From: Alphaproteobacteria bacterium
Lineage (GTDB): Bacteria > Pseudomonadota > Alphaproteobacteria > JAOXRX01
Direction: 5' to 3'
DNA length: 64,000 nt
Assembly: GCA_025800285.1 (NCBI GenBank)
Contig: JAOXRX010000037.1
Location: 52,651 to 116,650 of the forward strand
Positions 7,494 through 28,377 of the stretch are shown here, piece after piece; within the stretch, counting starts at the first letter, position 1; the number at the start of each line of letters is the position of its first letter. The notes below the pieces were generated by a model that saw only the letters and a list, made by a program, of their open reading frames with translations, had not been told where the DNA came from and did not search any database. Both the position numbers and the translations under genes were made by a program.

Positions 7494-8750
7494 ATGACAA
7501 AAAAATTTGATACATTTGATATATCAAAACAACTTAAAACAAGGCTAGCTAAAATGAATTACATTACCGCTACAGATATACAAGCACAAACTATTCCTGC
7601 AGTATTAGCTGGTAAAGATATTCTAGCATCATCCCAAACAGGTACTGGGAAAACAGCTGCATTTTTAATACCCATTTTAACCCTACTAAATAATAACAAG
7701 GGGCATAGAGCCTTAATCATAGCTCCAACAAGAGAGCTAGCGAAACAAGTTTGGTCTGTAGCGAATGAAATGATGGGCACAAACAAACATACAGCTTTAC
7801 TTATAGGTGGTGATAGCATGCCTAAACAGGTTGCTCAATTAAAACATAATCCTAAACTTATAATTGGTACACCTGGGAGAATCAATGATCACTTATCAAA
7901 AAGAAAATCCCTAAAATTAGACAATGCTCACTATTTAATTTTAGACGAAACTGATAGAATGCTAGACATGGGCTTTGGAGTTCAAATAGATGAAATAATT
8001 ACTCATATGCCAAAAGAGAAGCAAACAATTATGTTCTCTGCAACTCTACCAAAAGGAATCATAAAAGTTTCAGAAAAGTATTTAAAAGACCCTGCTAGAA
8101 TTTCTTCTGGAGAAGCAAATACTATAGTTGATAAAATAAAAGAAAAAATTATAAACACTGAAGAAAGATTTGAAGAATTAATTAAAGAGTTAAAAAGAGC
8201 TTCAGGATCTGTAATTATCTTTGCAAGAACACAAAGAAATACAGAAAAGTTACATACTAAGCTACACAAAAACACTAATTATAAAGCCGACTATCTTCAT
8301 GGAGGCTTAAGACAAAATAAAAGAGAAAGAGTAGTAAAAAGATTTAGAGATGCTAAGTTTAAAATATTAATTGCTACAGATGTTGCCTCTAGAGGATTAG
8401 ACATACCTCATATCGATCATGTTATTAATTACGATCTACCTGACAGTCCTGAAGATTATATACATCGCATAGGGAGAACTGCTAGAGCAGGAAAAGAAGG
8501 TGAGTCTATTTCTATAATTTCTAGAAAAGATGAGCATAAATGGTGTGCAATACAAAGATTCTTACAAGGAGAAGAAGCTTCTCCAAAAGACACCAAGAAA
8601 AAAAGAAAAAAGAAAAAGAAGAATAACTCTCTTTATAAGAAAAACAAAAAAGGCAATCCTGGAAAAGATAAGAAAACATCTAAAAGAGACGGTCATATGA
8701 AAAATCATAAAAACAAGACCTCAAAGAATAAGGGGAAAAGAAAGAGCTAG
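7494..8750 (+). CDS. DEAD-box ATP-dependent RNA helicase (RhlE-like) with a Lys-rich C-terminal tail
   Basis: Q-motif region; SSQTGTGKT (motif I); PTRELA; SAT; HRIGRTARAG (motif VI). Motif II reads DETD (gac gaa act gat). The tail is KKKRKKKKKNN...KNKGKRKS. Confidence 0.85.
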   Translation: MTKKFDTFDISKQLKTRLAKMNYITATDIQAQTIPAVLAGKDILASSQTGTGKTAAFLIPILTLLNNNKGHRALIIAPTRELAKQVWSVANEMMGTNKHTALLIGGDSMPKQVAQLKHNPKLIIGTPGRINDHLSKRKSLKLDNAHYLILDETDRMLDMGFGVQIDEIITHMPKEKQTIMFSATLPKGIIKVSEKYLKDPARISSGEANTIVDKIKEKIINTEERFEELIKELKRASGSVIIFARTQRNTEKLHTKLHKNTNYKADYLHGGLRQNKRERVVKRFRDAKFKILIATDVASRGLDIPHIDHVINYDLPDSPEDYIHRIGRTARAGKEGESISIISRKDEHKWCAIQRFLQGEEASPKDTKKKRKKKKKNNSLYKKNKKGNPGKDKKTSKRDGHMKNHKNKTSKNKGKRKS

Positions 8751-8765
8751 TAAGTTCAATAAACA

Positions 8766-8794
8766 TTGACAAATTGTCAACTTTAATATACATT
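8766..8794 (+). promoter_or_regulatory. Candidate typA promoter, TTGACA-17-TACATT; its -35 lies within a palindrome
   Basis: TTGACA at 8766-8771 and TACATT at 8789-8794, with a 17-nt spacer. TTGACAAaTTGTCAA (8766-8780) is a 7+7 inverted repeat. Confidence 0.4.
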
Positions 8795-8821
8795 TATTGC
8801 AAATAATAAAAAGGAAATATC

Positions 8822-10639
8822 ATGGAATTTAGAAATATAGCAATCATTGCCCATGTTGATCATGGCAAAACCACTCTTGTTGACAATATGCTGAAACAAA
8901 GTGGAGCTTTTGAAGCTCATAAAGAAATGGCTGACAGAGTTATGGACTCTAACGATTTAGAAAAAGAAAGAGGAATAACAATTTCTGCTAAATGCACTTC
9001 AATTGAGTGGAAAAACTATAGAATCAACATTGTTGACACTCCTGGTCATGCTGACTTTGGAGGAGAAGTAGAAAGAATACTAAGTATGGTTGACGGAGTT
9101 GTATTGCTAGTTGATTCTGCAGAAGGATGCCTACCTCAAACTAAATTTGTTTTAACAAAAGCTTTAGGCTTAGGGCTAAAGCCGATGGTAGTTGTAAACA
9201 AAGTTGATAGAGGAGATGCAAGACCTCACGAAGTTCATGATGAAGTTTTCGATTTATTTGACAAAATTGGAGCGAATGACGAACAACTAGACTTCCCAAC
9301 ACTGTTTGCAGTTGGAAGAGATGGTTGGGCTGTGGAAGATTATGAAAATGATACTCCTAAAGATTTGTCCCCGTTATTTGACTTAATAATAGATCATGTT
9401 CCTGCACCAACTTGTGCTCCTGAAAAACCATTTGCTATGCTAACGACTCTTATAGAATCAGATCCTTATGTTGGCAGAGTTCTAACAGGTAAAGTTTATA
9501 ACGGAAACATAAAAGTTGGCTCTCCTATTAAAGCTATCTCTCTTGATGGTAAGACAATAGAACAAGGCAAGGTTACAAAAATTATGGCTTTCCGTGGAGT
9601 AGAAAGAACATCTGTAAGTGAAGCTATCGCTGGAGACATTATTTCTATAGCTGGATTATCAAAAGCAACTGTAGCAGATACAATTTGTGATTTATCAGTA
9701 GAAAAGGCTTTTGAAGCACACCCAATCGATCCTCCTACACTTTCAATGACATTCTCTGTTAACGATTCTCCGTTCGCAGGTCAAGAAGGAGATAAACTTA
9801 CTTCAAGAGTAATTGCAGCAAGATTATTTAAAGAAGCTGAAAGCAATGTAGCTCTAAAAGTTGAAGAAACTGAAGATAAAAATAGCTTTATTGTATCTGG
9901 TCGTGGAGAACTACAATTAGGAGTGCTAATAGAAACTCTTAGAAGAGAAGGATTCGAACTTTCTATCTCAAGACCTCATGTTGTTTATAAATATGAAGAC
10001 GGTCAAAAACTAGAGCCAATTGAAGAAGTTATTATCGATGTTGAAGATGAGTTCTCTGGTATAGTTATTGAGAAAATGAATAAAAGAAAAGGTATTATGT
10101 CAGACTTAAGACCTTCTGGCGATGGAAAAACAAGAATAACATTCTATACTCCATCAAGAGGTCTAATCGGTTATTTATCTGAGTTTAGAACAGATACAAG
10201 AGGAACTGGTGTTATGAATAGATTATTCCATAACTACGAACCGTTTAAAGGAGAAATTGAGAAATATAGATCAGGAGTTCTAATCTCTATGGGAAACGGA
10301 GTCGCAGCTCCATTTGCTTTATTCAACTTAGAAGCAAGAGGTGTAATGTTCATTGATGCTGGTGTAAAAGTTTATGATGGCATGATTATTGGAGAACATT
10401 CTCAAAGCAATGATTTGGAAGTAAACCCTATTAAAGGTAAGCAACTTACAAACATCCGTGCTTCTGGTAAAGATGAGGCTGTTAAGCTTACAACCCCGAT
10501 TACAATGAGCTTAGAAGAGGCAATTTCATACATTCATGATGATGAATTAGTTGAAGTTACTCCTGAGAGTATGAGACTTAGAAAAAAACATTTAAGTGCT
10601 ATTGACAGGAAAAAAGCTTTAAGAGCTAAAAACAAATAG
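8822..10639 (+). CDS. typA: Translational GTPase TypA/BipA
   Basis: 605 aa. It has AIIAHVDHGKTTL (G1), DTPGHADF (G3) and NKVD (G4) motifs and a BipA-type C-terminal domain. Confidence 0.95.
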   Translation: MEFRNIAIIAHVDHGKTTLVDNMLKQSGAFEAHKEMADRVMDSNDLEKERGITISAKCTSIEWKNYRINIVDTPGHADFGGEVERILSMVDGVVLLVDSAEGCLPQTKFVLTKALGLGLKPMVVVNKVDRGDARPHEVHDEVFDLFDKIGANDEQLDFPTLFAVGRDGWAVEDYENDTPKDLSPLFDLIIDHVPAPTCAPEKPFAMLTTLIESDPYVGRVLTGKVYNGNIKVGSPIKAISLDGKTIEQGKVTKIMAFRGVERTSVSEAIAGDIISIAGLSKATVADTICDLSVEKAFEAHPIDPPTLSMTFSVNDSPFAGQEGDKLTSRVIAARLFKEAESNVALKVEETEDKNSFIVSGRGELQLGVLIETLRREGFELSISRPHVVYKYEDGQKLEPIEEVIIDVEDEFSGIVIEKMNKRKGIMSDLRPSGDGKTRITFYTPSRGLIGYLSEFRTDTRGTGVMNRLFHNYEPFKGEIEKYRSGVLISMGNGVAAPFALFNLEARGVMFIDAGVKVYDGMIIGEHSQSNDLEVNPIKGKQLTNIRASGKDEAVKLTTPITMSLEEAISYIHDDELVEVTPESMRLRKKHLSAIDRKKALRAKNK

Positions 10640-10691
10640 ATTATAAAAAAGCTTGCATTTTTTATAAAAATGGAGTAGCTTACTGGAATAA

Positions 10692-10719
10692 ATAAGGAGA
10701 GGTGGCTGAGTGGCTGAAA
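10692..10719 (+). repeat. Orphan copy of the 5' end of tRNA-Ser: a 28-bp direct repeat of 10872-10899
   Basis: ATAAGGAGAGGTGGCTGAGTGGCTGAAA occurs identically at 10692-10719 and 10872-10899. The first copy is not followed by an anticodon arm, a T arm or a 3' acceptor strand. Confidence 0.85.
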
Positions 10720-10875
10720 ATACGCTTAGTCTTCTCAAGAAGCAAAGCGACTGCAAGAAGACTTAGTCTTTTGCCCGAATACGAGCCTAAAAGGCGAAGT
10801 ACCGAGGGAAATCGTGGAGCTTTTAAGTTAGAGTTAAATAGTTTTTTAAATCTAGCTTCACAATTGGTTATATAA

Positions 10876-10966
10876 GGAGAGGTGGCTGAGTGGCTGAAAG
10901 CGCGCCCCTGCTAAGGGTGTATAGGGCAACCCCCTATCGAGGGTTCGAATCCCTCTCTCTCCGCCA
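10876..10966 (+). tRNA. tRNA-Ser (anticodon GCU), class II, with encoded CCA
   Basis: Acceptor GGAGAGG / TCTCTCC with a G-U pair at position 7-66. Anticodon stem-loop CGCCC-CTGCTAA-GGGTG. Long variable arm. T arm GAGGG-TTCGAAT-CCCTC. Discriminator G followed by CCA. Confidence 0.95.
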
Positions 10967-10977
10967 TAAATAAAAAA

Positions 10978-11001
10978 GTCGTGCATAGCACGGCTTTTTT
11001 G
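10978..11001 (+). terminator. Rho-independent terminator after tRNA-Ser
   Basis: GTCGTGC-ata-GCACGGC hairpin (one G-U pair) followed by TTTTTT. Confidence 0.7.
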
Positions 11002-11153
11002 TTTATAGGAGTGAAGTTAGGATTAGAAACTTTATGAGTAAATCTTTGATTTACGAATGGTTCGACAATTGAACTTCATTTCATAGGGCAGAGCCCGCAT
11101 GAAATGTTAGTGATTGCAACTTTTGAAGAAACCTTAGTTTCTGATAAAAGTAA

Positions 11154-11440
11154 TCCCTCTCTTTACATAATATTTTTCAATTTATATTCGATGAATTAGG
11201 AATAGATAAAATAGCGAAGGAAGTTAATAAACATTTCTCAAATCAAGATATAGACATCATTGTCATAGATCCATGGAGAAATATCTACGAACAAGGATTG
11301 TCAGGAAAAAGCTCTGTCGATCCAAATGCTGATATTATAGCTTTTTTCAAAAGCCGTATTGAAAGTTTGCGAGAAAAAACAAATCCGAATGCTGGAATTG
11401 TGATAGCTCACCATACAAATAAGAACCAAGAATTAGAACA
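11154..11440 (+). pseudogene. Remnant of a RepA/AAA_25-type (RecA-fold) plasmid or phage replication ATPase
   Basis: The frame is open from 11154 without an upstream ATG. The translation ...IDIIVIDPWRNIYEQG...ADIIAFFKSRIESLREKTNPNAGIVIAHHTNK matches the Walker-B strand and the downstream 'vvlvHHtsK' block of RepA-like ATPases. There is no Walker A, and the frame decays into hydrophobic junk by 11501. Confidence 0.5.
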
Positions 11441-11514
11441 CAAAATATTATTAATATATATATTTGTTTTTTCATGGTTGTATTATTACGACCTTTTATA
11501 ATTTAAAATTCTAT

Positions 11515-11895
11515 TCATAACGAAAGTTTGTAATTAATATATATGCTAAAAGACAATATAAAATTGTAATACATAAAGTATATTATAGCCATGCAAAAAT
11601 AATAACCAATACATATGAAGCGACTTTTTAGTTTATTCTTAATATCTAAAACATTATTTTTTGTTTTCCAAAATATAAAGGAATACAAAAAAACAATCAA
11701 AAATATCATAAGTAAAGAAAAATAAACATTAGGGCAATCCCCTTTTATACATACATATTTGTTATAATAATCTTCGTTAAATATAGAAATCATGTAATTT
11801 TTTATGGATATTATACTAATTGTTATAAAACCGAAAAGCCCTAGTATAAAAATTATGCTTGGTATATTATTTGCAATTTTTCTAAATTTATTCAT
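11515..11895 (-). CDS. Small 3-TM membrane protein: candidate immunity protein or holin-like partner of the upstream enzyme
   Basis: 126 aa consisting almost only of hydrophobic helices. It lies 38 nt downstream of the Tlde1-like gene on the same strand. No family recognised. Confidence 0.55.
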   Translation of the reverse strand: MNKFRKIANNIPSIIFILGLFGFITISIISIKNYMISIFNEDYYNKYVCIKGDCPNVYFSLLMIFLIVFLYSFIFWKTKNNVLDIKNKLKSRFICIGYYFCMAIIYFMYYNFILSFSIYINYKLSL

Positions 11896-11933
11896 AATAA
11901 TAATTGTTTAACATATAGGCTTATATAATGCAA

Positions 11934-12557
11934 TTATTTTTTATATTGAACTATTAAATCAATAGTTCCTATTTCTGATATTGATCTAAATTCTTCTAAA
12001 AAACTTTTTATTTCAGATGTTAGATCTATGCATCCTATAGAACCAGGATATGTACCTCCATGGATAGAAAACCCACTTCTTCCTTTTGTATCAGTTCCCT
12101 TTTTGGGATCAAGCCATACTCTTCCATCTCCCCATGACTTTTCCCCTCCCGGAAAAGTTCCACCATAAAATATACCTTTAAATTTATCCCAATCACTTCT
12201 ATTATCAGTATACTGAATATCAGGTCTTACTTTATATTCTCCTTCAGGAATTGGACCTTTATTTTTTTTATCAGTATCTTCAGGATGTTGATATCCTGGT
12301 TTACCAGAAACACCATTCCAAGATTTAATAACCTCTTCCGCCCAAATGAGTTTTAAAATTTTGCCATTAAATAATAAATAAGGTTTTCCTTCTCTTTGAT
12401 ATATTTTCTTTAAATGGCATCTACAATTTGGATGTATAGGTAGTTTAGGAGCATCTTGCATTTTATCAAACCTTTTTCCTTGATGTTCTTTGCATTTATC
12501 ACAAATATTGTCTCCTTCGTTTTGATAAACCCAATCATAAATTTCATATTGTTGCAT
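11934..12557 (-). CDS. MuF-type Cys/His knuckle fused to a Tlde1/DUF2778-like (L,D-transpeptidase-fold) peptidoglycan-acting domain
   Basis: Residues 19-47 read CDKC...PIHPNCRC, the terminal motif of Phage_Mu_F/SPP1 gp7. Next come LLFNGKILKL...SWNGVSGKPGY, GPIPEGEYKV and GRSGFSIHGGTYPGSIGCIDL. This is the DUF2778/Tlde1 pattern, with a conserved His and the S-x-G-C catalytic Cys. Confidence 0.7.
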   Translation of the reverse strand: MQQYEIYDWVYQNEGDNICDKCKEHQGKRFDKMQDAPKLPIHPNCRCHLKKIYQREGKPYLLFNGKILKLIWAEEVIKSWNGVSGKPGYQHPEDTDKKNKGPIPEGEYKVRPDIQYTDNRSDWDKFKGIFYGGTFPGGEKSWGDGRVWLDPKKGTDTKGRSGFSIHGGTYPGSIGCIDLTSEIKSFLEEFRSISEIGTIDLIVQYKK

Positions 12558-13129
12558 TATTTTTCTCCTTTTCTTGAGATTGGTAAATTATTATTTACTT
12601 CTGTTAATTTTTTATCTAAATTAATTTTCTTTTTCCCCCAGCAGTATTCAGCATAAACATTGTTAAAAGCTCCATCCTTAATAGCTCTTTTAATTTCTAA
12701 CAAAGGATAAAAAGAGCAAATTTTTTCTAAAAAAGATTTAGTTTTATTACCTAAAATTCCATCCTCTTTTAGAGCTATGATTTCTGTTATTTGATGTTCT
12801 TTTTTATATCCTGTGAGAATATTTAATCCTCTTTGCAAATCTTTTAAAGCTTGTTCTTTTCCTACTCTCTTTGAATGAGTCTGCAGAAATTCATTTAATT
12901 CAGATATTTTCTCTTTAGTTGAAGAGGGTTTTATTACTTTATTCTCTTTTATTGCTACCACAGGAGGTTCTTCTTCAATTACTTGCTTTTTTAGTTCTGG
13001 TTTTTTAGCGACTTTCTTTATAGGCCTTTCTTCAATACCATATTCTCTTTTTAAAAAGGATTTAATCTCTTGCTCAAAAAGGTGTTGTTTATAAGCCTTT
13101 TTAATATTTTCATAATTAAAATTTATCAT
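12557..13129 (-). CDS. Hypothetical protein with a Lys/Glu-rich linker and a PG_binding_1-like segment
   Basis: 190 aa. ALKDLQRGLNILTGYKK...LKEDGILGNKTKSFLEKI resembles the peptidoglycan-binding three-helix repeat (LQ..L..lGY...DG.fG..T..a...fq). Its stop overlaps the next start by 1 nt. Confidence 0.55.
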   Translation of the reverse strand: MINFNYENIKKAYKQHLFEQEIKSFLKREYGIEERPIKKVAKKPELKKQVIEEEPPVVAIKENKVIKPSSTKEKISELNEFLQTHSKRVGKEQALKDLQRGLNILTGYKKEHQITEIIALKEDGILGNKTKSFLEKICSFYPLLEIKRAIKDGAFNNVYAEYCWGKKKINLDKKLTEVNNNLPISRKGEK

Positions 13130-13141
13130 TATATTTGCTCC

Positions 13142-13170
13142 AATAAAAAAGCCCTGTCTTGCGACAGAGC
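13142..13170 (-). terminator. Terminator-like hairpin plus U-run in the leader of the cassette (possible attenuator or insulator)
   Basis: On the minus strand, GCtCTGTC-gcaa-GACAGGGC is followed by TTTTTTATT and then the SD GGAG 8 nt before the ATG at 13129. Confidence 0.4.
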
Positions 13171-13196
13171 ATAGGTATTTCTTTTTCTAATTACCT

Positions 13197-13225
13197 TCTA
13201 TAGGACATTATTCCTAACTTGTCAA
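13197..13225 (-). promoter_or_regulatory. Candidate promoter for the cassette, TTGACA-17-TATAGA on the minus strand
   Basis: The reverse complement of 13220-13225 is TTGACA, and that of 13197-13202 is TATAGA. The spacer is 17 nt. Confidence 0.3.
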
Positions 13226-13311
13226 GTAAAAAATAATTTATTTGTTTTATTCGCTTTATTGTCTTTTTTGCTGGACTTTCTCTGAAAGTTATGGCTTTGT
13301 TGTGTTGTGCC

Positions 13312-13325
13312 GCGACTCGAGTCGC
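13312..13325. repeat. Perfect 14-bp GC-rich palindrome GCGACTCGAGTCGC
   Basis: Read directly from the sequence. It is flanked by GTTGT...ACAAC, which could extend the stem. It is an isolated GC-rich element in AT-rich spacer, 25 nt upstream of a strong SD. Confidence 0.9.
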
Positions 13326-13350
13326 TAAAACAACTAAACCAGGAGGATAT

Positions 13351-13440
13351 ATGGAATTAGAGATTAAAAAGAAAGTAGGTTTAAATCTATTTAAAATTCG
13401 CAGAGAAAAGCATTATCAAATTAATTCTGATTACTATTAA
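13351..13440 (+). CDS. 29-aa mini-ORF resembling the N-terminus of an XRE-family HTH protein (probably a truncated relic)
   Basis: AGGAGG lies 4 nt upstream of the ATG. The translation is MELEIKKKVGLNLFKIRREKHYQINSDYY*. VGLNLFKIRREK resembles the 'iG.rlk.lR.ek' start of Cro/CI-type HTH proteins, but the ORF stops before the recognition helix. Confidence 0.3.
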   Translation: MELEIKKKVGLNLFKIRREKHYQINSDYY

Positions 13441-13505
13441 AGACTGCATACAAAATATAATTTTAGCATATTATTATAATTAACTTTCTCACAATATTAA
13501 AAAAG

Positions 13506-13534
13506 TTGCAAACATGCTAATTTTATGATATATT
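13506..13534 (+). promoter_or_regulatory. Sigma-70-like promoter, TTGCAA-17-TATATT
   Basis: TTGCAA at 13506-13511 and TATATT at 13529-13534, with a 17-nt spacer. It lies about 60 nt upstream of the 13593 ATG, which has the SD AAGGAG. Confidence 0.5.
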
Positions 13535-13592
13535 AACAGTGCACAGAACAAAGATTGTTTTATAATTAAACAAAATTAAGGAGATAAAAAAT

Positions 13593-14522
13593 ATGTTAAA
13601 GATGAGCGAAAACAAAAAAATAGATACTACTTTAACAACTGTTTTATTAGCTGGGGTTTTTGCAGTAGGAAAGAAACATAAAGGCTTTATTCCCGAAGCA
13701 GAAATGAATTTATTAAAAGACTCTTTAGAAAGAGTTAAAAGTGCTAGCATTTTACATAGAGGTGTATCCCTTTTAGGAACTAAAACACCAGGATTTGCTA
13801 TAAAAATTCTAGATACTTTTTCTCATGGATTAGCATATCAGTATGCAGAAAGAAATAGAATATTTCGTGAACAATTCTCTCAAATGCACAGCATTTATGG
13901 CTCAGACTTATCTATAGTAAATTTAAGGGCTGGTCTTGATTTTATACCGGATTTATATGCTTATAATAACAATTTAGAAACTATAAATATTGATAGCGAG
14001 GAAATTTTAAGTCAAAGAAAATGGTTATTGCAAGAGAAAAGACCTGAGCTATTCTATAACTCTAAAGAAGTTCCTTTGAACTTATCATTGGAGAATGATA
14101 TTTCTAAAATACAAAACTTTTTAAAAGATAAACCAACTTTAGTTATGGCTAAAGGATTGTTTCCATATTTAGAACATGATAAAGTTAAGCTTATTTTACA
14201 AGAAATAGCAAAATCACCTAAACCATCAATGCTTACATGCTCTTTTTTAAATTCTTTAAATGGAAATACAAAAACTAAAAAAGAGGAATCTACTAAACAA
14301 AGCATGAATTATAAATCAGCTTGGAGCCCTAAAGATTTTACAGCATTAGCAACAAGCTTAGGCATGCAGGTTCAATTTGCACTAAAAGCCTCAACTTGGA
14401 TGAGTGAAGCTATAATAAAATCTGGAAAAATAAACCCTCAGCAATTAGATGAAACTTGGGATATAGAAAACATGGCGACAATATCTAATGCAAGACATTC
14501 ATATATACCTTCAATTAGTTAA
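13593..14522 (+). CDS. Putative SAM-dependent O-methyltransferase of the leucine-carboxyl-methyltransferase (LCM) type
   Basis: 309 aa. The layout resembles LCM-family enzymes: N-terminal TTLTTVLLAGVFAV, then RNRIFREQF..., VNLRAGLDFIPD (the 'lGAGlDtr' position), INIDSEEIL ('fEvD.p.v') and VMAKGLFPYLEHDKVKLILQEIA ('EGl..YL....v..ll..i'). The sequence is divergent. Confidence 0.45.
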   Translation: MLKMSENKKIDTTLTTVLLAGVFAVGKKHKGFIPEAEMNLLKDSLERVKSASILHRGVSLLGTKTPGFAIKILDTFSHGLAYQYAERNRIFREQFSQMHSIYGSDLSIVNLRAGLDFIPDLYAYNNNLETINIDSEEILSQRKWLLQEKRPELFYNSKEVPLNLSLENDISKIQNFLKDKPTLVMAKGLFPYLEHDKVKLILQEIAKSPKPSMLTCSFLNSLNGNTKTKKEESTKQSMNYKSAWSPKDFTALATSLGMQVQFALKASTWMSEAIIKSGKINPQQLDETWDIENMATISNARHSYIPSIS

Positions 14523-14553
14523 TTCAAAACCTTATACAAAAAAAATCTAAGTA

Positions 14554-15450
14554 CTAATGTGTTCTACCAGCTAGATATTGAGCTAGCTCTATTAACAAAC
14601 TTACATCTTTGTTAAATATCTTTAACTCATCACAAGCTTCCTGAGTTAATTTATCAACTGCTATTTGTGCTTCTTCCAGCCCATACATAGAAATAAATGT
14701 TGTTTTCTTATTAGCCTCATCTCTTCGTAATGGCTTACCTACTAATTTTTCATCACCAATAACATCTAATATATCATCCGTTATTTGAAAAACAATGCCA
14801 AATTTTGTTGCATAATTATACAAAGCTTTTCGCTCCTCTTTAGAAGCCTTTCCCAATATAGCTCCAGCCAAACAAGAGAATATAAACATTTTACCTGTTT
14901 TAAGAAACTCCATTCTTTTCATTGTCTCAAAGGACAAAGATCTTTTTTCAGATAGTAAGTCTAGTATTTGACCAGCAACCATCCCCTTTGCTCCAATTGT
15001 TTTTGAGAGTTCTAAAGCAATTTCGCTTCTTAATTCAGCATCCGATATATTGCTTGGATTAGAAATAATCTCATAAGCTAAGGGTATTAAAGCATCACCA
15101 GTAAGTATAGCAGTTGCCTCATCATATCTTATATGGTTTGCGGGCTGTCCTCTTCTAGTATCGGCATCGTCCATAGAAGGAAGGTCATCATGAATAAGAG
15201 AATAAGCATGCACGAACTCTATTGCACTAGCCACTTTTAAAGCCTCTTTTCTAGAAACTCCAAATAGCTTTGATGTTTCTACTACTAAAAATGCTCTAAT
15301 TCTTTTAGCCTTTGCCATAGAAGAATATCTCATGGATTCATATAGGAAACTCTCTTCTTCCGTTCCATTTGGGATTAAAGCCAGCATTTCAGCCTCAATA
15401 TCTTTAACTACTCTTTTTATTTCTGATGATAAAGCTTTGCTGATATTCAT
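14554..15450 (-). CDS. ispA: (2E,6E)-farnesyl diphosphate synthase / polyprenyl synthetase
   Basis: Motifs LIHDDLPSMDDADTRRG (FARM) and FQITDDILD (SARM). I place the start at the ATG at 15450 (MNISKAL), 1 nt after the xseB stop. The track ORF extends to 15507, inside xseB. Confidence 0.85.
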   Translation of the reverse strand: MNISKALSSEIKRVVKDIEAEMLALIPNGTEEESFLYESMRYSSMAKAKRIRAFLVVETSKLFGVSRKEALKVASAIEFVHAYSLIHDDLPSMDDADTRRGQPANHIRYDEATAILTGDALIPLAYEIISNPSNISDAELRSEIALELSKTIGAKGMVAGQILDLLSEKRSLSFETMKRMEFLKTGKMFIFSCLAGAILGKASKEERKALYNYATKFGIVFQITDDILDVIGDEKLVGKPLRRDEANKKTTFISMYGLEEAQIAVDKLTQEACDELKIFNKDVSLLIELAQYLAGRTH

Positions 15451-15451
15451 G

Positions 15452-15667
15452 TTACATATCCTCTTCTTTTGATACTTCTCCGTTACTACTAACGGCAATT
15501 TTTTCAAGTTTTGTTTTTGCTTCTTTTAATCTAGTTTCACAGATTGATGCGAGCTTAACACCTTTTTCATAATTAGCCAAAGCATCTTCAAGTTTACCTT
15601 GTCCGCTTTCCATAGATTTAACAATTAGTTCTAGCTCTTTTAAAGCATCTTCAAAATTAGTATCCAT
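15452..15667 (-). CDS. xseB: Exodeoxyribonuclease VII small subunit
   Basis: 71 aa. FEDALKELELIVKSMESGQGKLEDALANYEKGVKLASICETRLKEA is the canonical XseB helix-turn-helix hairpin. xseB-ispA synteny is preserved. Confidence 0.85.
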   Translation of the reverse strand: MDTNFEDALKELELIVKSMESGQGKLEDALANYEKGVKLASICETRLKEAKTKLEKIAVSSNGEVSKEEDM

Positions 15668-15677
15668 ATCTTTCTCC

Positions 15678-16643
15678 TTATTTAAAAACCCCTATCACAC
15701 TCATCATATCTTCTGGAATCTCACTTATAAAGTGCATCTCCTCTTTTGTACTAGGATGAATAAAAGCTATTTCTTTTGCATGCAAAGCTTGTCTATCAAA
15801 GCATCTCAATATCGCCTTTTGTTCATCTGTAAATTTATATTTATTGATTTTGCTTCTACCATAAACTTGATCTCCTAAAAGAGGACAACCTATATGAGTC
15901 ATATGAACTCTTATTTGATGAGTCCTTCCTGTTTCAAGTTTACATTCAACTAAACAAAGCTTTCTCTCAAATGTTTTAAGAGTCTTATAATTTGTGATTG
16001 CCTCTTTACCAGCATCTTCACCCAGAACAGACATTTTTTTACGATTCGTTTTACTTCTTCCAATGTTAGTTAGGATTGTTCCTGATGATGGAGATGGATT
16101 TCCCCAAACAATAGCATTATAAACTCTAGAAAGCTTTCTCTTTTCTAACTGCTTTGATAAATGTTTATGTGCTTTATCGTTTTTCGCAACGATCATCAAG
16201 CCACTTGTATCTTTATCTAAACGATGAACAATTCCCGGTCTTTGTACTCCACCTATGCCAGAAAGGCTATCTTTACAATGGAACAGTATAGCATTTACTA
16301 GAGTCCCATCATAATTACCAACAGCAGGATGCACAACCATACCTACTTCTTTATTGATAACTAGAACATCATCATCTTCATAAACGATGTTTATAGGTAT
16401 ATCTTGTGGTTCTGGGATTGCCTCTTTAACTTCTGGAATTTCAACGAAAAACACATCTCCTTTTTTAACTTTTGTTGCTGGAGATATTTTTTCATAATTT
16501 TTACTTTTTACATAATCATTCTCTATGTAATTCTTTAATTGGTTTCTGGATATTTCTGGCAGAGATTTCGCCAAACAGAAATCCAATCTTTTTTTATTTA
16601 ACTCTTCTGATATTTGAACTTTTAACATACAGCTTTTATACAA
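15678..16643 (-). CDS. rluD: 23S rRNA pseudouridine synthase, RluD type
   Basis: N-terminal S4 domain (RLDFCLAKSL), the catalytic motif HRLDKDTSGLM and GRTHQIRVH. Confidence 0.85.
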   Translation of the reverse strand: MYKSCMLKVQISEELNKKRLDFCLAKSLPEISRNQLKNYIENDYVKSKNYEKISPATKVKKGDVFFVEIPEVKEAIPEPQDIPINIVYEDDDVLVINKEVGMVVHPAVGNYDGTLVNAILFHCKDSLSGIGGVQRPGIVHRLDKDTSGLMIVAKNDKAHKHLSKQLEKRKLSRVYNAIVWGNPSPSSGTILTNIGRSKTNRKKMSVLGEDAGKEAITNYKTLKTFERKLCLVECKLETGRTHQIRVHMTHIGCPLLGDQVYGRSKINKYKFTDEQKAILRCFDRQALHAKEIAFIHPSTKEEMHFISEIPEDMMSVIGVFK

Positions 16644-16678
16644 TAGATTTTTACAAAAGACAAATTATTTCTTTTTGA

Positions 16679-18823
<2,145 letters not shown>

Positions 18824-28308: not shown

Positions 28309-28377
28309 ATGAATGTTATAATGTTAACAATGCAAGCTTTTATAGCTTACTTCACTGTTATTTTATTTTTTTCTTGA
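28309..28377 (+). CDS. Candidate 22-aa hydrophobic micro-protein
   Basis: GGGGGAGG lies 6 nt upstream of the ATG. The translation is MNVIMLTMQAFIAYFTVILFFS*. The ORF is below the track's length cut-off and I found it by reading the spacer. Confidence 0.3.
   Translation: MNVIMLTMQAFIAYFTVILFFS

Follow-up and report, generated by a model that had tools for sequence, protein, structure and literature searches.

A decaying, strain-variable integration site around a tRNA-Ser(GCU) gene of an alphaproteobacterium

Setting of the tRNA-Ser(GCU) locus

We analyzed a 64-kb stretch of DNA (64,000 nucleotides, hereafter the window) from an uncultured alphaproteobacterium (GenBank assembly GCA_025800285.1, contig JAOXRX010000037.1). 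The window is AT-rich (31.5% GC) and its sole tRNA gene, an intact tRNA-Ser(GCU) with an encoded CCA end, lies on the forward strand at 10876-10966 (ARAGORN; Rfam tRNA family, 54.9 bits), 236 bp beyond typA (8822-10639). Upstream of this gene stand the 5' stub of a second tRNA-Ser copy and a 152-bp spacer; downstream come a 185-bp segment, an 11-nt echo of the 3' end of the tRNA and an internal piece of a phage-type replication gene. The first-pass annotation of the window had proposed that one or more elements integrated at this tRNA gene and then eroded. We find that the locus is a decaying, strain-variable integration site: a longer copy of the tRNA 3' end is retained in a sister strain, from which the window differs by a 2.2-kb insertion or deletion and by a deletion of about 190 bp, and the replication-gene fragment belongs to the AAA_25 ATPase family. 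Observations that could speak against the proposal were looked for, and neither a conserved functional fragment, nor a lack of AAA_25 matches, nor a flank-like composition with uniform synteny was found.

The sister strain, contig L017 (JGI 3300045489), was reached through homologues of TypA. Its TypA is 99% identical to that of the window, and its DNA matches at 98.4% over 7000-11162 and at 98.2% over 14091-17770 (blastn), with the same arrangement of typA, fragment, spacer and tRNA. Three more distant contigs (L019-L021; TypA 89%, 82% and 81%) have no tRNA-Ser after typA, and synteny was for this reason approached from the ispA side. A TypA search of GTDB representative genomes reached a top identity of 69% and found no relative with a tRNA-Ser after typA; the source lineage is therefore without a close relative among these genomes. 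The ispA side led to two syntenic relatives, L151 and L152 (31% GC; identities to the window of 58% for IspA, 77% for RluD and 91% for AsnC). In both, tRNA-Ser(GCU) is convergent with ispA-xseB-rluD-ligA, as it is in the window, and the genes for prephenate dehydratase (PDT), SpoU and AsnC lie on the opposite side of the tRNA. The order of AsnC (4391-4858) and SpoU (5038-5475) in the window agrees with this. The tRNA-Ser(GCU) locus is therefore positionally orthologous in the two lineages.

Across the 28-bp repeat formed by the stub and the intact gene, the window and an independent Logan contig (L001) do not differ, and L017 has the same repeat with substitutions of its own; the structure is therefore not an assembly artefact. 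Logan contigs of the same strain (L001, L144 and L145, from SRR15960039) break at 10960, inside the tRNA 3' end, at 11103, inside the 185-bp segment, and at 13121-13145, near the start of a 190-codon reading frame. These breaks could reflect variants that co-exist in the sample, or low coverage.

Repeats of the tRNA 3' end and phage-type remnants downstream

A bidirectional intrinsic terminator hairpin (10967-11004; -19.2 kcal/mol), flanked by an A-run and a T-run and reported on the reverse strand by the terminator scan, directly follows the intact gene. It opens the 185-bp segment (10967-11151, forward strand), which is identical in L017 and which we read as the remainder of the most proximal inserted DNA. 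The segment ends at AATCCCTCTCT, an 11-nt repeat of tRNA positions 73-83 in the same orientation. The first-pass annotation had noticed this echo and placed it at 11153-11163; the repeat is real and its position is 11152-11162. Set against the whole 64-kb window, such a match is at chance level (E 6.4), but not within the AT-rich flank: for downstream spans of 250, 1000 and 3600 nt, the probability that some 11-nt stretch of the tRNA recurs exactly is 0.001, 0.002 and 0.009, respectively.

In L017 the same 185 bp lead to AATCCCTCTCTCTCCGCCATA (L017 5497-5517), which holds 21 exact nucleotides of the tRNA 3' end (24 of 26 with its flank) and is followed by a terminator hairpin of its own. Another piece, GAGGGTTCGAA, which repeats tRNA positions 64-74 in the T arm, lies 58 nt further on; the number of tRNA matches of at least 11 nt observed in L017 is two, against a null expectation of 0.003. 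About 170 bp (roughly L017 5518-5685) separate the AATCCCTCTCTCTCCGCCATA repeat from CCCCCTCTCT-TTACATAAT, and the stretch CCCCCTCTCT-TTACATAATATT corresponds to 11155-11185 of the window. The window joins the AATCCCTCTCTCTCCGCCATA repeat and CCCCCTCTCT at the microhomology CCCTCTCT; a deletion of about 190 bp between microhomologies has cut the 21-nt repeat, which resembles an attachment (att) site, down to the 11-nt echo, which is also the junction of the deletion. Position 73 of the tRNA, where the 3' repeat begins, lies in the T loop, and position 74 is where the second piece in L017 ends; both appear consistent with a crossover site in the T loop. The exact 25-nt 3' end of the tRNA is present in more than 120 IMG/VR contigs, and 48 of its 121 occurrences lie outside a full tRNA, as expected for att sites.

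Beyond the echo, the two strains diverge in content. A 2.2-kb segment of the window (11186-13405) is absent from L017, which has 54 unrelated bp in its place (blastn and alignment), and L017 keeps the longer repeats, so that the region is strain-variable and not uniformly syntenic with its relative. Its composition is also distinct: GC is 25-30% at 11-14 kb and 31-37% in the flanks. A blastn search with 10640-13600 against phages and plasmids matched the tRNA only. Two further candidate signals were rejected: the absence of strain substitutions in 10816-11162 is within the normal scatter of divergence, and the likeness of a hairpin at 11075-11100 to a tRNA variable arm is superficial. The tRNA-derived pieces are similarly spaced (window 10692-11162; L017 5041-5693), with 180 nt from the 5' stub to the gene start, 204 nt from the tRNA 3' end to the first repeat and about 182 nt from the first repeat to the degenerate CCCCCTCTCT in L017. 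This spacing may represent the arm lengths of attachment sites, or a coincidence.

The frame at 11154-11501 starts at the tRNA-end echo, has no ATG and reads IDIIVIDPWRN and, further on, AGIVIAHHTNK, as described in the first-pass annotation, which saw in it the part of a RepA-like AAA_25 ATPase that runs from Walker B to HHxxK. Both the missing Walker A motif (no GxxxxGK[ST] in any forward frame of 10967-11300) and the family assignment are borne out. The Pfam AAA_25 profile (PF13481) aligns over its positions 135-195 of 195 with E 0.0095 and 16 bits, below its gathering score of 27 bits; the match to phrog_13004 (positions 214-292 of 363) has E 3.6e-16. A word-indexed protein search with the fragment found nothing, whereas an exhaustive HMMER scan (phmmer) of 1.84 billion representatives gave 99 matches at E <= 0.001, the best at 4e-13, usually at residues 420-550 of proteins of about 700 residues. 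The ten best homologues all carry AAA_25 (54-86 bits), and four of the ten carry Toprim. A sequence search of the PDB returned no meaningful match. Homology ends near 11438, leaving about 90 residues (11166-11438, forward strand) of a Toprim/AAA_25 phage replication protein with no start codon, Walker A motif or C-terminal part; these alignments show the frame to be a real piece from the interior of a phage-type primase-helicase, truncated on both sides.

The provirus contig L096 codes for a protein of the Toprim-AAA_25 type, longer than 707 residues and 42% identical to the fragment (DIIVIDPLRN...NPDAGIILAHHTRK), within a replication module that also holds AAA_24 and a DEAD-box helicase. In a set of some 50,700 deposited phage genomes, a homologue of the fragment (11154-11453; 37-40% identity) occurs in Wolbachia phage WO alone. 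Its gene gwv_1125 (KX522565.1 57500-58306, L154), next to an AAA24 gene, bears the annotation 'AAA25 phage related protein'. This match hints that the lost element was a temperate phage of a kind found in intracellular alphaproteobacteria. At 1427-3847, L096 also has a tRNA-Ser(GGA) whose 3' 25 nt are identical to those of the window tRNA, and a large serine recombinase (Resolvase, Recombinase and zinc-ribbon domains) about 1 kb from it. Tyrosine integrases are the only ones known to target tRNA genes, according to the Islander study (PMC4383910). L096, with a serine recombinase and not a tyrosine integrase by its tRNA-Ser, was rejected as an example of att-site use and documents the phage context of AAA_25 only.

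Within the 2.2-kb segment lies a cargo remnant of three open reading frames (ORFs) on the reverse strand (11515-13129), present in the window and absent from L017. The first, p190 (190 aa, 12557-13129), matches no family. The second (207 aa, 11934-12557) holds the last 45 or so residues of a MuF/SPP1-gp7 head-morphogenesis domain, with the motif HPNCRC, followed by a Tlde1 toxin domain: Pfam Tlde1_dom scores 32.7 bits (cut-off 30.1), and Phage_Mu_F scores 17.2 bits, below its cut-off of 29.6 and over profile positions 64-111 only; TIGR01641 matches in part and PHROG head-morphogenesis families match as well. The third (126 aa, 11515-11895) is predicted to be a membrane protein and may serve in immunity, both roles being read from the sequence. 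Overall, the module has the appearance of a polymorphic toxin that was carried by a phage and later truncated.

A gene for an LCM-like S-adenosylmethionine-dependent methyltransferase (309 aa, 13593-14522, forward strand; Pfam LCM, E 2.5e-08) lies at the distal edge of the variable region; it adjoins the core gene ispA (14554-15507, reverse strand) and may be either cargo or core. It is intact in the window and split by a 67-bp deletion in L017 (L017 5771-6795). Identity between the strains is only 88.9% over 13406-14023, against about 98% on either side, which suggests relaxed constraint or exchange with a diverged allele.

The upstream stub, its promoter and the spacer

The 28-bp repeat ATAAGGAGAGGTGGCTGAGTGGCTGAAA occurs at 10692-10719 and again at 10872-10899, exactly as first annotated (blastn-short within the window, E 4.6e-10). 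Copy 1 consists of 4 nt of leader and tRNA positions 1-24 (10696-10719, forward strand); copy 2 is the start of the intact gene. The match can be extended to 31 nt with one mismatch (10689-10719 and 10869-10899), and no extension upstream of the 28-31-bp core is significant (p 0.13-0.68). The 24 tRNA bases are a consensus common to several tRNA-Ser(GCU) alleles with quite different bodies; the 24-mer by itself is therefore no proof of a recent duplication. The upstream copy (10696-10875) is not a functional tRNA as judged by ARAGORN, which makes no call, and by Rfam, where it has no tRNA match at E <= 10; a covariance model specific to tRNA-Ser(GCU) gives 13.8 bits for 10696-10779 and 109.4 bits for the intact gene. 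Over the 180 nt of fragment and spacer, L017 and the window differ by four substitutions (2.2%, at or above the background of about 1.5%), among them a G6 to T change in the stub. The 5' fragment is drifting, with divergence at background level.

An ancestral tRNA-Ser promoter region precedes the stub and not the intact gene. The sequence AAAAGCTTGCATTTTTTATAAAAAT (10647-10671) matches the region upstream of the L151 tRNA-Ser(GCU) at 22 of 25 positions (17 exact), a score reached by none of 3000 shuffles; the 80 nt upstream of the intact gene, compared with the same L151 sequence, do not match it (p 0.16). The conserved block AAAAGCTTGCATTTTTT, in short form AAAAGCTTGCAT, lies 49 nt from the fragment, as compared with about 60 nt from the tRNA in L151. 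Reading the sequence by eye, we assign a -35-like TTGCAT (10653-10658) and a -10-like TAGCTT (10677-10682) separated by 18 nt, which would place the promoter at 10647-10682 on the forward strand. The exact motif AAAAGCTTGCATTTTTT occurs once in the window and, among the loci that were fetched, only in strain relatives, in L151/L152 and in one unrelated viral contig. An imperfect second block, AAAAGCTTGCATTGTTA, with two mismatches, lies at 28325-28341 on the reverse strand, within a stretch of 25% GC at 28-29.5 kb, and is possibly another promoter of the same type.

The typA gene ends 7 nt ahead of the conserved promoter block. The interval from SpoU to tRNA-Ser holds ahpC, lysR, a DEAD-box helicase gene and typA in the window but only the PDT gene in L151 (window 4391-10639, L151 8972-10884), which places a rearrangement breakpoint immediately upstream of the conserved promoter of the tRNA.

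The spacer (10720-10871, 152 bp, forward strand) may be read as the scrambled body of the dead tRNA copy followed by a junction. It contains the hairpin AGTCTTCT (10728-10735)/AGAAGACT (10756-10763) that had been described as strong, a generous term for 8 bp around a 20-nt loop at -11.1 kcal/mol. No Rfam family was found in the spacer, and over 10500-11600 a search at E <= 10 returned the tRNA only, the remainder being sub-threshold noise. The spacer likewise matches nothing in phages, plasmids or viral contigs. It holds one piece that resembles a tRNA body: GCGAAGTACCGAGGG (10794-10808) matches positions 53-67 of the L151 tRNA, that is, the 3' strand of the variable arm and the T stem, at 14 of 15 positions (p 0.002), whereas the same comparison with the window's own intact tRNA is no better than chance (p 0.47). 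The order of promoter, positions 1-24 and positions 53-67 is collinear and in the correct orientation. Inside the dead copy there is also a 25-nt direct repeat (10709-10733 and 10746-10770; 72% identity, spacing 37 nt), which suggests a small duplication that helped to scramble it.

History of the two tRNA-Ser copies

The first-pass annotation had taken the 5' fragment for a duplicate, made by an unusual crossover or by local tandem duplication. That a fragment is repeated stands; what the fragment represents can be refined. It most likely is the decayed resident tRNA-Ser gene, still on its own promoter, because the ancestral promoter precedes it and because the spacer holds a remnant of the variable arm and T stem of the L151 type. 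The functional gene, in turn, is most likely a later copy of another allele. It is identical in L017 and agrees with the L151 tRNA at 75 of 95 aligned columns (79%), and it is identical at 87 of 91 positions (96%) to the tRNAs of two unrelated contigs, L142 and L143 (GC 45% and 60%), which were picked up in metagenomes with 38 nt of the tRNA body and have only the tRNA in common with the window. We infer that this copy may be of foreign origin. With moderate confidence, we thus favor a tRNA-Ser(GCU) locus that was hit repeatedly and worn down by deletions, in which the upstream piece is the resident gene and the functional gene a later copy of a different allele.

On the 3' side, elements would have inserted themselves at the 3' end of the tRNA gene, leaving direct repeats of this end behind, and the bulk of each element would later have been deleted. 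What may remain of them is the 185-bp stub, the echo (11 nt here, 21 nt in L017), the Toprim/AAA_25 fragment and the MuF/Tlde1 module, and deletion between short CCCTCTCT repeats would still be under way between strains. On the 5' side, the fragment would be the first 24 nt of the original resident tRNA-Ser, with a body scrambled from 10720 to about 10820. A second copy may have arrived on an element whose attachment region carried a full-length, or nearly full-length, tRNA-Ser. With a crossover near the T loop, the element would have come to be flanked by two complete hybrid tRNA copies, the upstream one keeping the host promoter and the host variable arm and the downstream one having the variable arm of the element, and a later deletion would have removed the element together with the 3' end and terminator of the upstream copy. 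The intact gene is now probably read from the ancestral promoter through a pseudo-tRNA leader of about 185 nt, as the position of the conserved promoter block suggests; transcription would end at the gene's own terminator, and RNase P would remove the leader. That such an event was a xenologous replacement, in which an element-borne full-length tRNA-Ser(GCU) took the place of the resident, so that a foreign copy now runs on the host promoter and the resident is caught in mid-decay, we put forward as a tentative possibility that falls short of even chances.

Several observations weigh against this history. The resident allele is recognized from one relative lineage (L151/L152) and a 15-nt match, with p about 0.007 after correction for the three tRNAs tried, and a different alignment of the dead copy, spanning 10696-10779, comes out of the Ser-specific covariance model. 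The scan for promoters made no call at 10647-10682. No integrase or integrase remnant was found with Pfam, NCBIfam and PHROGs among the ORFs of at least 120 aa and the ATPase frame in 10967-14553, within the window the region lacks a distal tRNA fragment that would mark its far end, and no element was found that carries a full-length tRNA-Ser of the window type beside a tyrosine integrase. Furthermore, a local tandem duplication would more simply explain the four identical upstream nucleotides and the likeness of the spacer tail to DNA downstream of the intact gene.

Such a duplication, in place, of a unit of about 180-195 bp (beginning 4 nt before the tRNA, taking in the tRNA and its terminator and ending about 100 nt beyond), with decay of the upstream copy and no mobile element on the 5' side, is the best of the alternatives, and we consider it unlikely. 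It accounts for the 28 of 28 identity that takes in 4 nt of leader, and it predicts that copy 1 keeps the ancestral promoter, as observed. The spacer tail (10824-10871) moreover aligns with 11013-11066 at about 67% identity, at a similar distance from the core (104 and 113 nt), with p 0.0002 for this sub-region. An unbiased local-alignment search for the tail, however, gives only p 0.066, and the 104 nt from core to tail resemble neither the tRNA body nor the terminator (p 0.92). A perfect first 28 nt beside a 67% tail is also inconsistent with uniform decay, and the body remnant of copy 1 fits the L151 allele and not copy 2, so that an extra replacement of the copy-2 body would be required.

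Less probable still is a classical site-specific integration of the 5' type, in which an element attachment site (attP) carrying only tRNA positions -4 to +24 displaced the host 5' fragment upstream and the element was then deleted down to 152 bp. A 5' fragment in the same orientation upstream of the tRNA is an accepted configuration: the statement in the first-pass annotation that it is normally the 3' part that is duplicated holds for most islands, and 5'-fragment islands are a known minority in Islander (159 of 3919, against 3760 of the 3' type; PMC4383910). The fragment also adjoins the host promoter, as expected. The block of identity, however, stops within the D stem, at raw position 24, whereas the crossover sublocations described in that study are the anticodon loop, the T loop and the T/acceptor junction (PMC4383910). 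An integrase is absent; all five IMG/VR contigs with the 5' 24-mer have it as part of a complete tRNA and none has it as an isolated 5' fragment, and the spacer/tRNA junction pattern has 0 matches in viral contigs (IMG/VR). The L151-type remnant of the variable arm in the spacer would be left unexplained.

That selection maintains the fragment and spacer as an RNA with a function (for example a leader that is processed, a small RNA or a decoy resembling a tRNA) is very improbable: both strains have the stretch, its 180 nt fold better than shuffles (z -2.7, 1/200) and the stub pairs with the following 14 nt, but two of the four strain substitutions break predicted pairs, one of them in the stub, the fold energy in L017 is typical of random variants with four substitutions, the divergence is not below background, and there is no Rfam family and no copy elsewhere in the window, in viral contigs, in phages or in plasmids.

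Comparison with known systems and implications

The locus is a known kind of genome scar, left by integration at a tRNA gene and subsequent decay, and not a new system. With the islands at tRNA genes compiled by Islander it shares the signature of an intact tRNA accompanied by end fragments in the same orientation on the correct sides (5' upstream at 10696-10719, 3' downstream at 11152-11162, all on the forward strand). It also shares with such islands a separate terminator after each downstream copy of the tRNA end, phage-type cargo beyond, strain-variable content, and a 25-nt tRNA-Ser 3' end that recurs as a lone fragment in many viral contigs. Unlike them, it has no tyrosine integrase in the interval, and its intervals measure 152-204 bp (152 bp on the 5' side, 185 bp on the 3' side and about 170 bp more in L017), against 2-200 kb in Islander; the 3' repeat of the window is cut to 11 nt and no distal fragment closes the 3.6-kb region.

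Partial tRNA genes left by the integration of elements have been described as pseudo-tRNAs (van der Gulik et al. 2023, PMC9897764). Here, too, a partial tRNA gene stands beside a complete gene of the same isotype and may be attributed to the integration of incoming DNA. It differs in that the partial copy holds the ancestral promoter and in that its remnant body appears to belong to a different allele from the complete gene.

The ATPase piece resembles the RepA-like and DnaB-like AAA_25 ATPases (PF13481) that are fused to Toprim. Its IIVIDP and NPxAGIxxAHHTxK blocks align with the best homologues at 37-57% over about 85 residues, and the nearest named example among the AAA_25 modules of phages and integrative elements is gwv_1125 of Wolbachia phage WO. 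It comprises, however, only about 90 of some 270-860 residues, without start codon, Walker A or Toprim, and by this comparison it is a pseudogene fragment of the family and not a functional member.

Islands and prophages at tRNA genes include tandem arrays as well as decayed, att-flanked remnants that resemble cis-mobilizable elements (CIMEs). Temperate phages carry MuF polymorphic toxins, a family concept that includes proteins with a Tlde1 (L,D-transpeptidase-like) toxin domain. The 207-aa ORF resembles them in its C-terminal MuF motif (HPNCRC), after which comes a Tlde1 domain that exceeds the Pfam cut-off, and it has a small membrane ORF downstream, possibly an immunity gene. It is unlike them in that MuF is reduced to its last 45 or so residues, the gene being probably truncated, and in that no other phage structural genes lie nearby.

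Two strains that are 98.4% identical thus show successive steps in the ageing of an integration site: att-like repeats are trimmed by deletion at microhomologies, 2.2 kb of cargo is lost and a replication gene is reduced to an internal fragment. Software that searches for islands with integrase and length filters would discard such a locus despite a real signature of tRNA fragments. The unusual feature is the 5' side, where the ancestral promoter stands on the dead copy and not on the live one. If replacement is the right explanation, annotation pipelines would misplace the promoter of such a tRNA by 180 bp, and integrating elements can do more than regenerate the 3' end of a tRNA gene: they can swap the body of a core tRNA gene. 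The main value of the locus lies in this two-strain snapshot of island erosion and in the possible replacement, in place, of a core tRNA gene.

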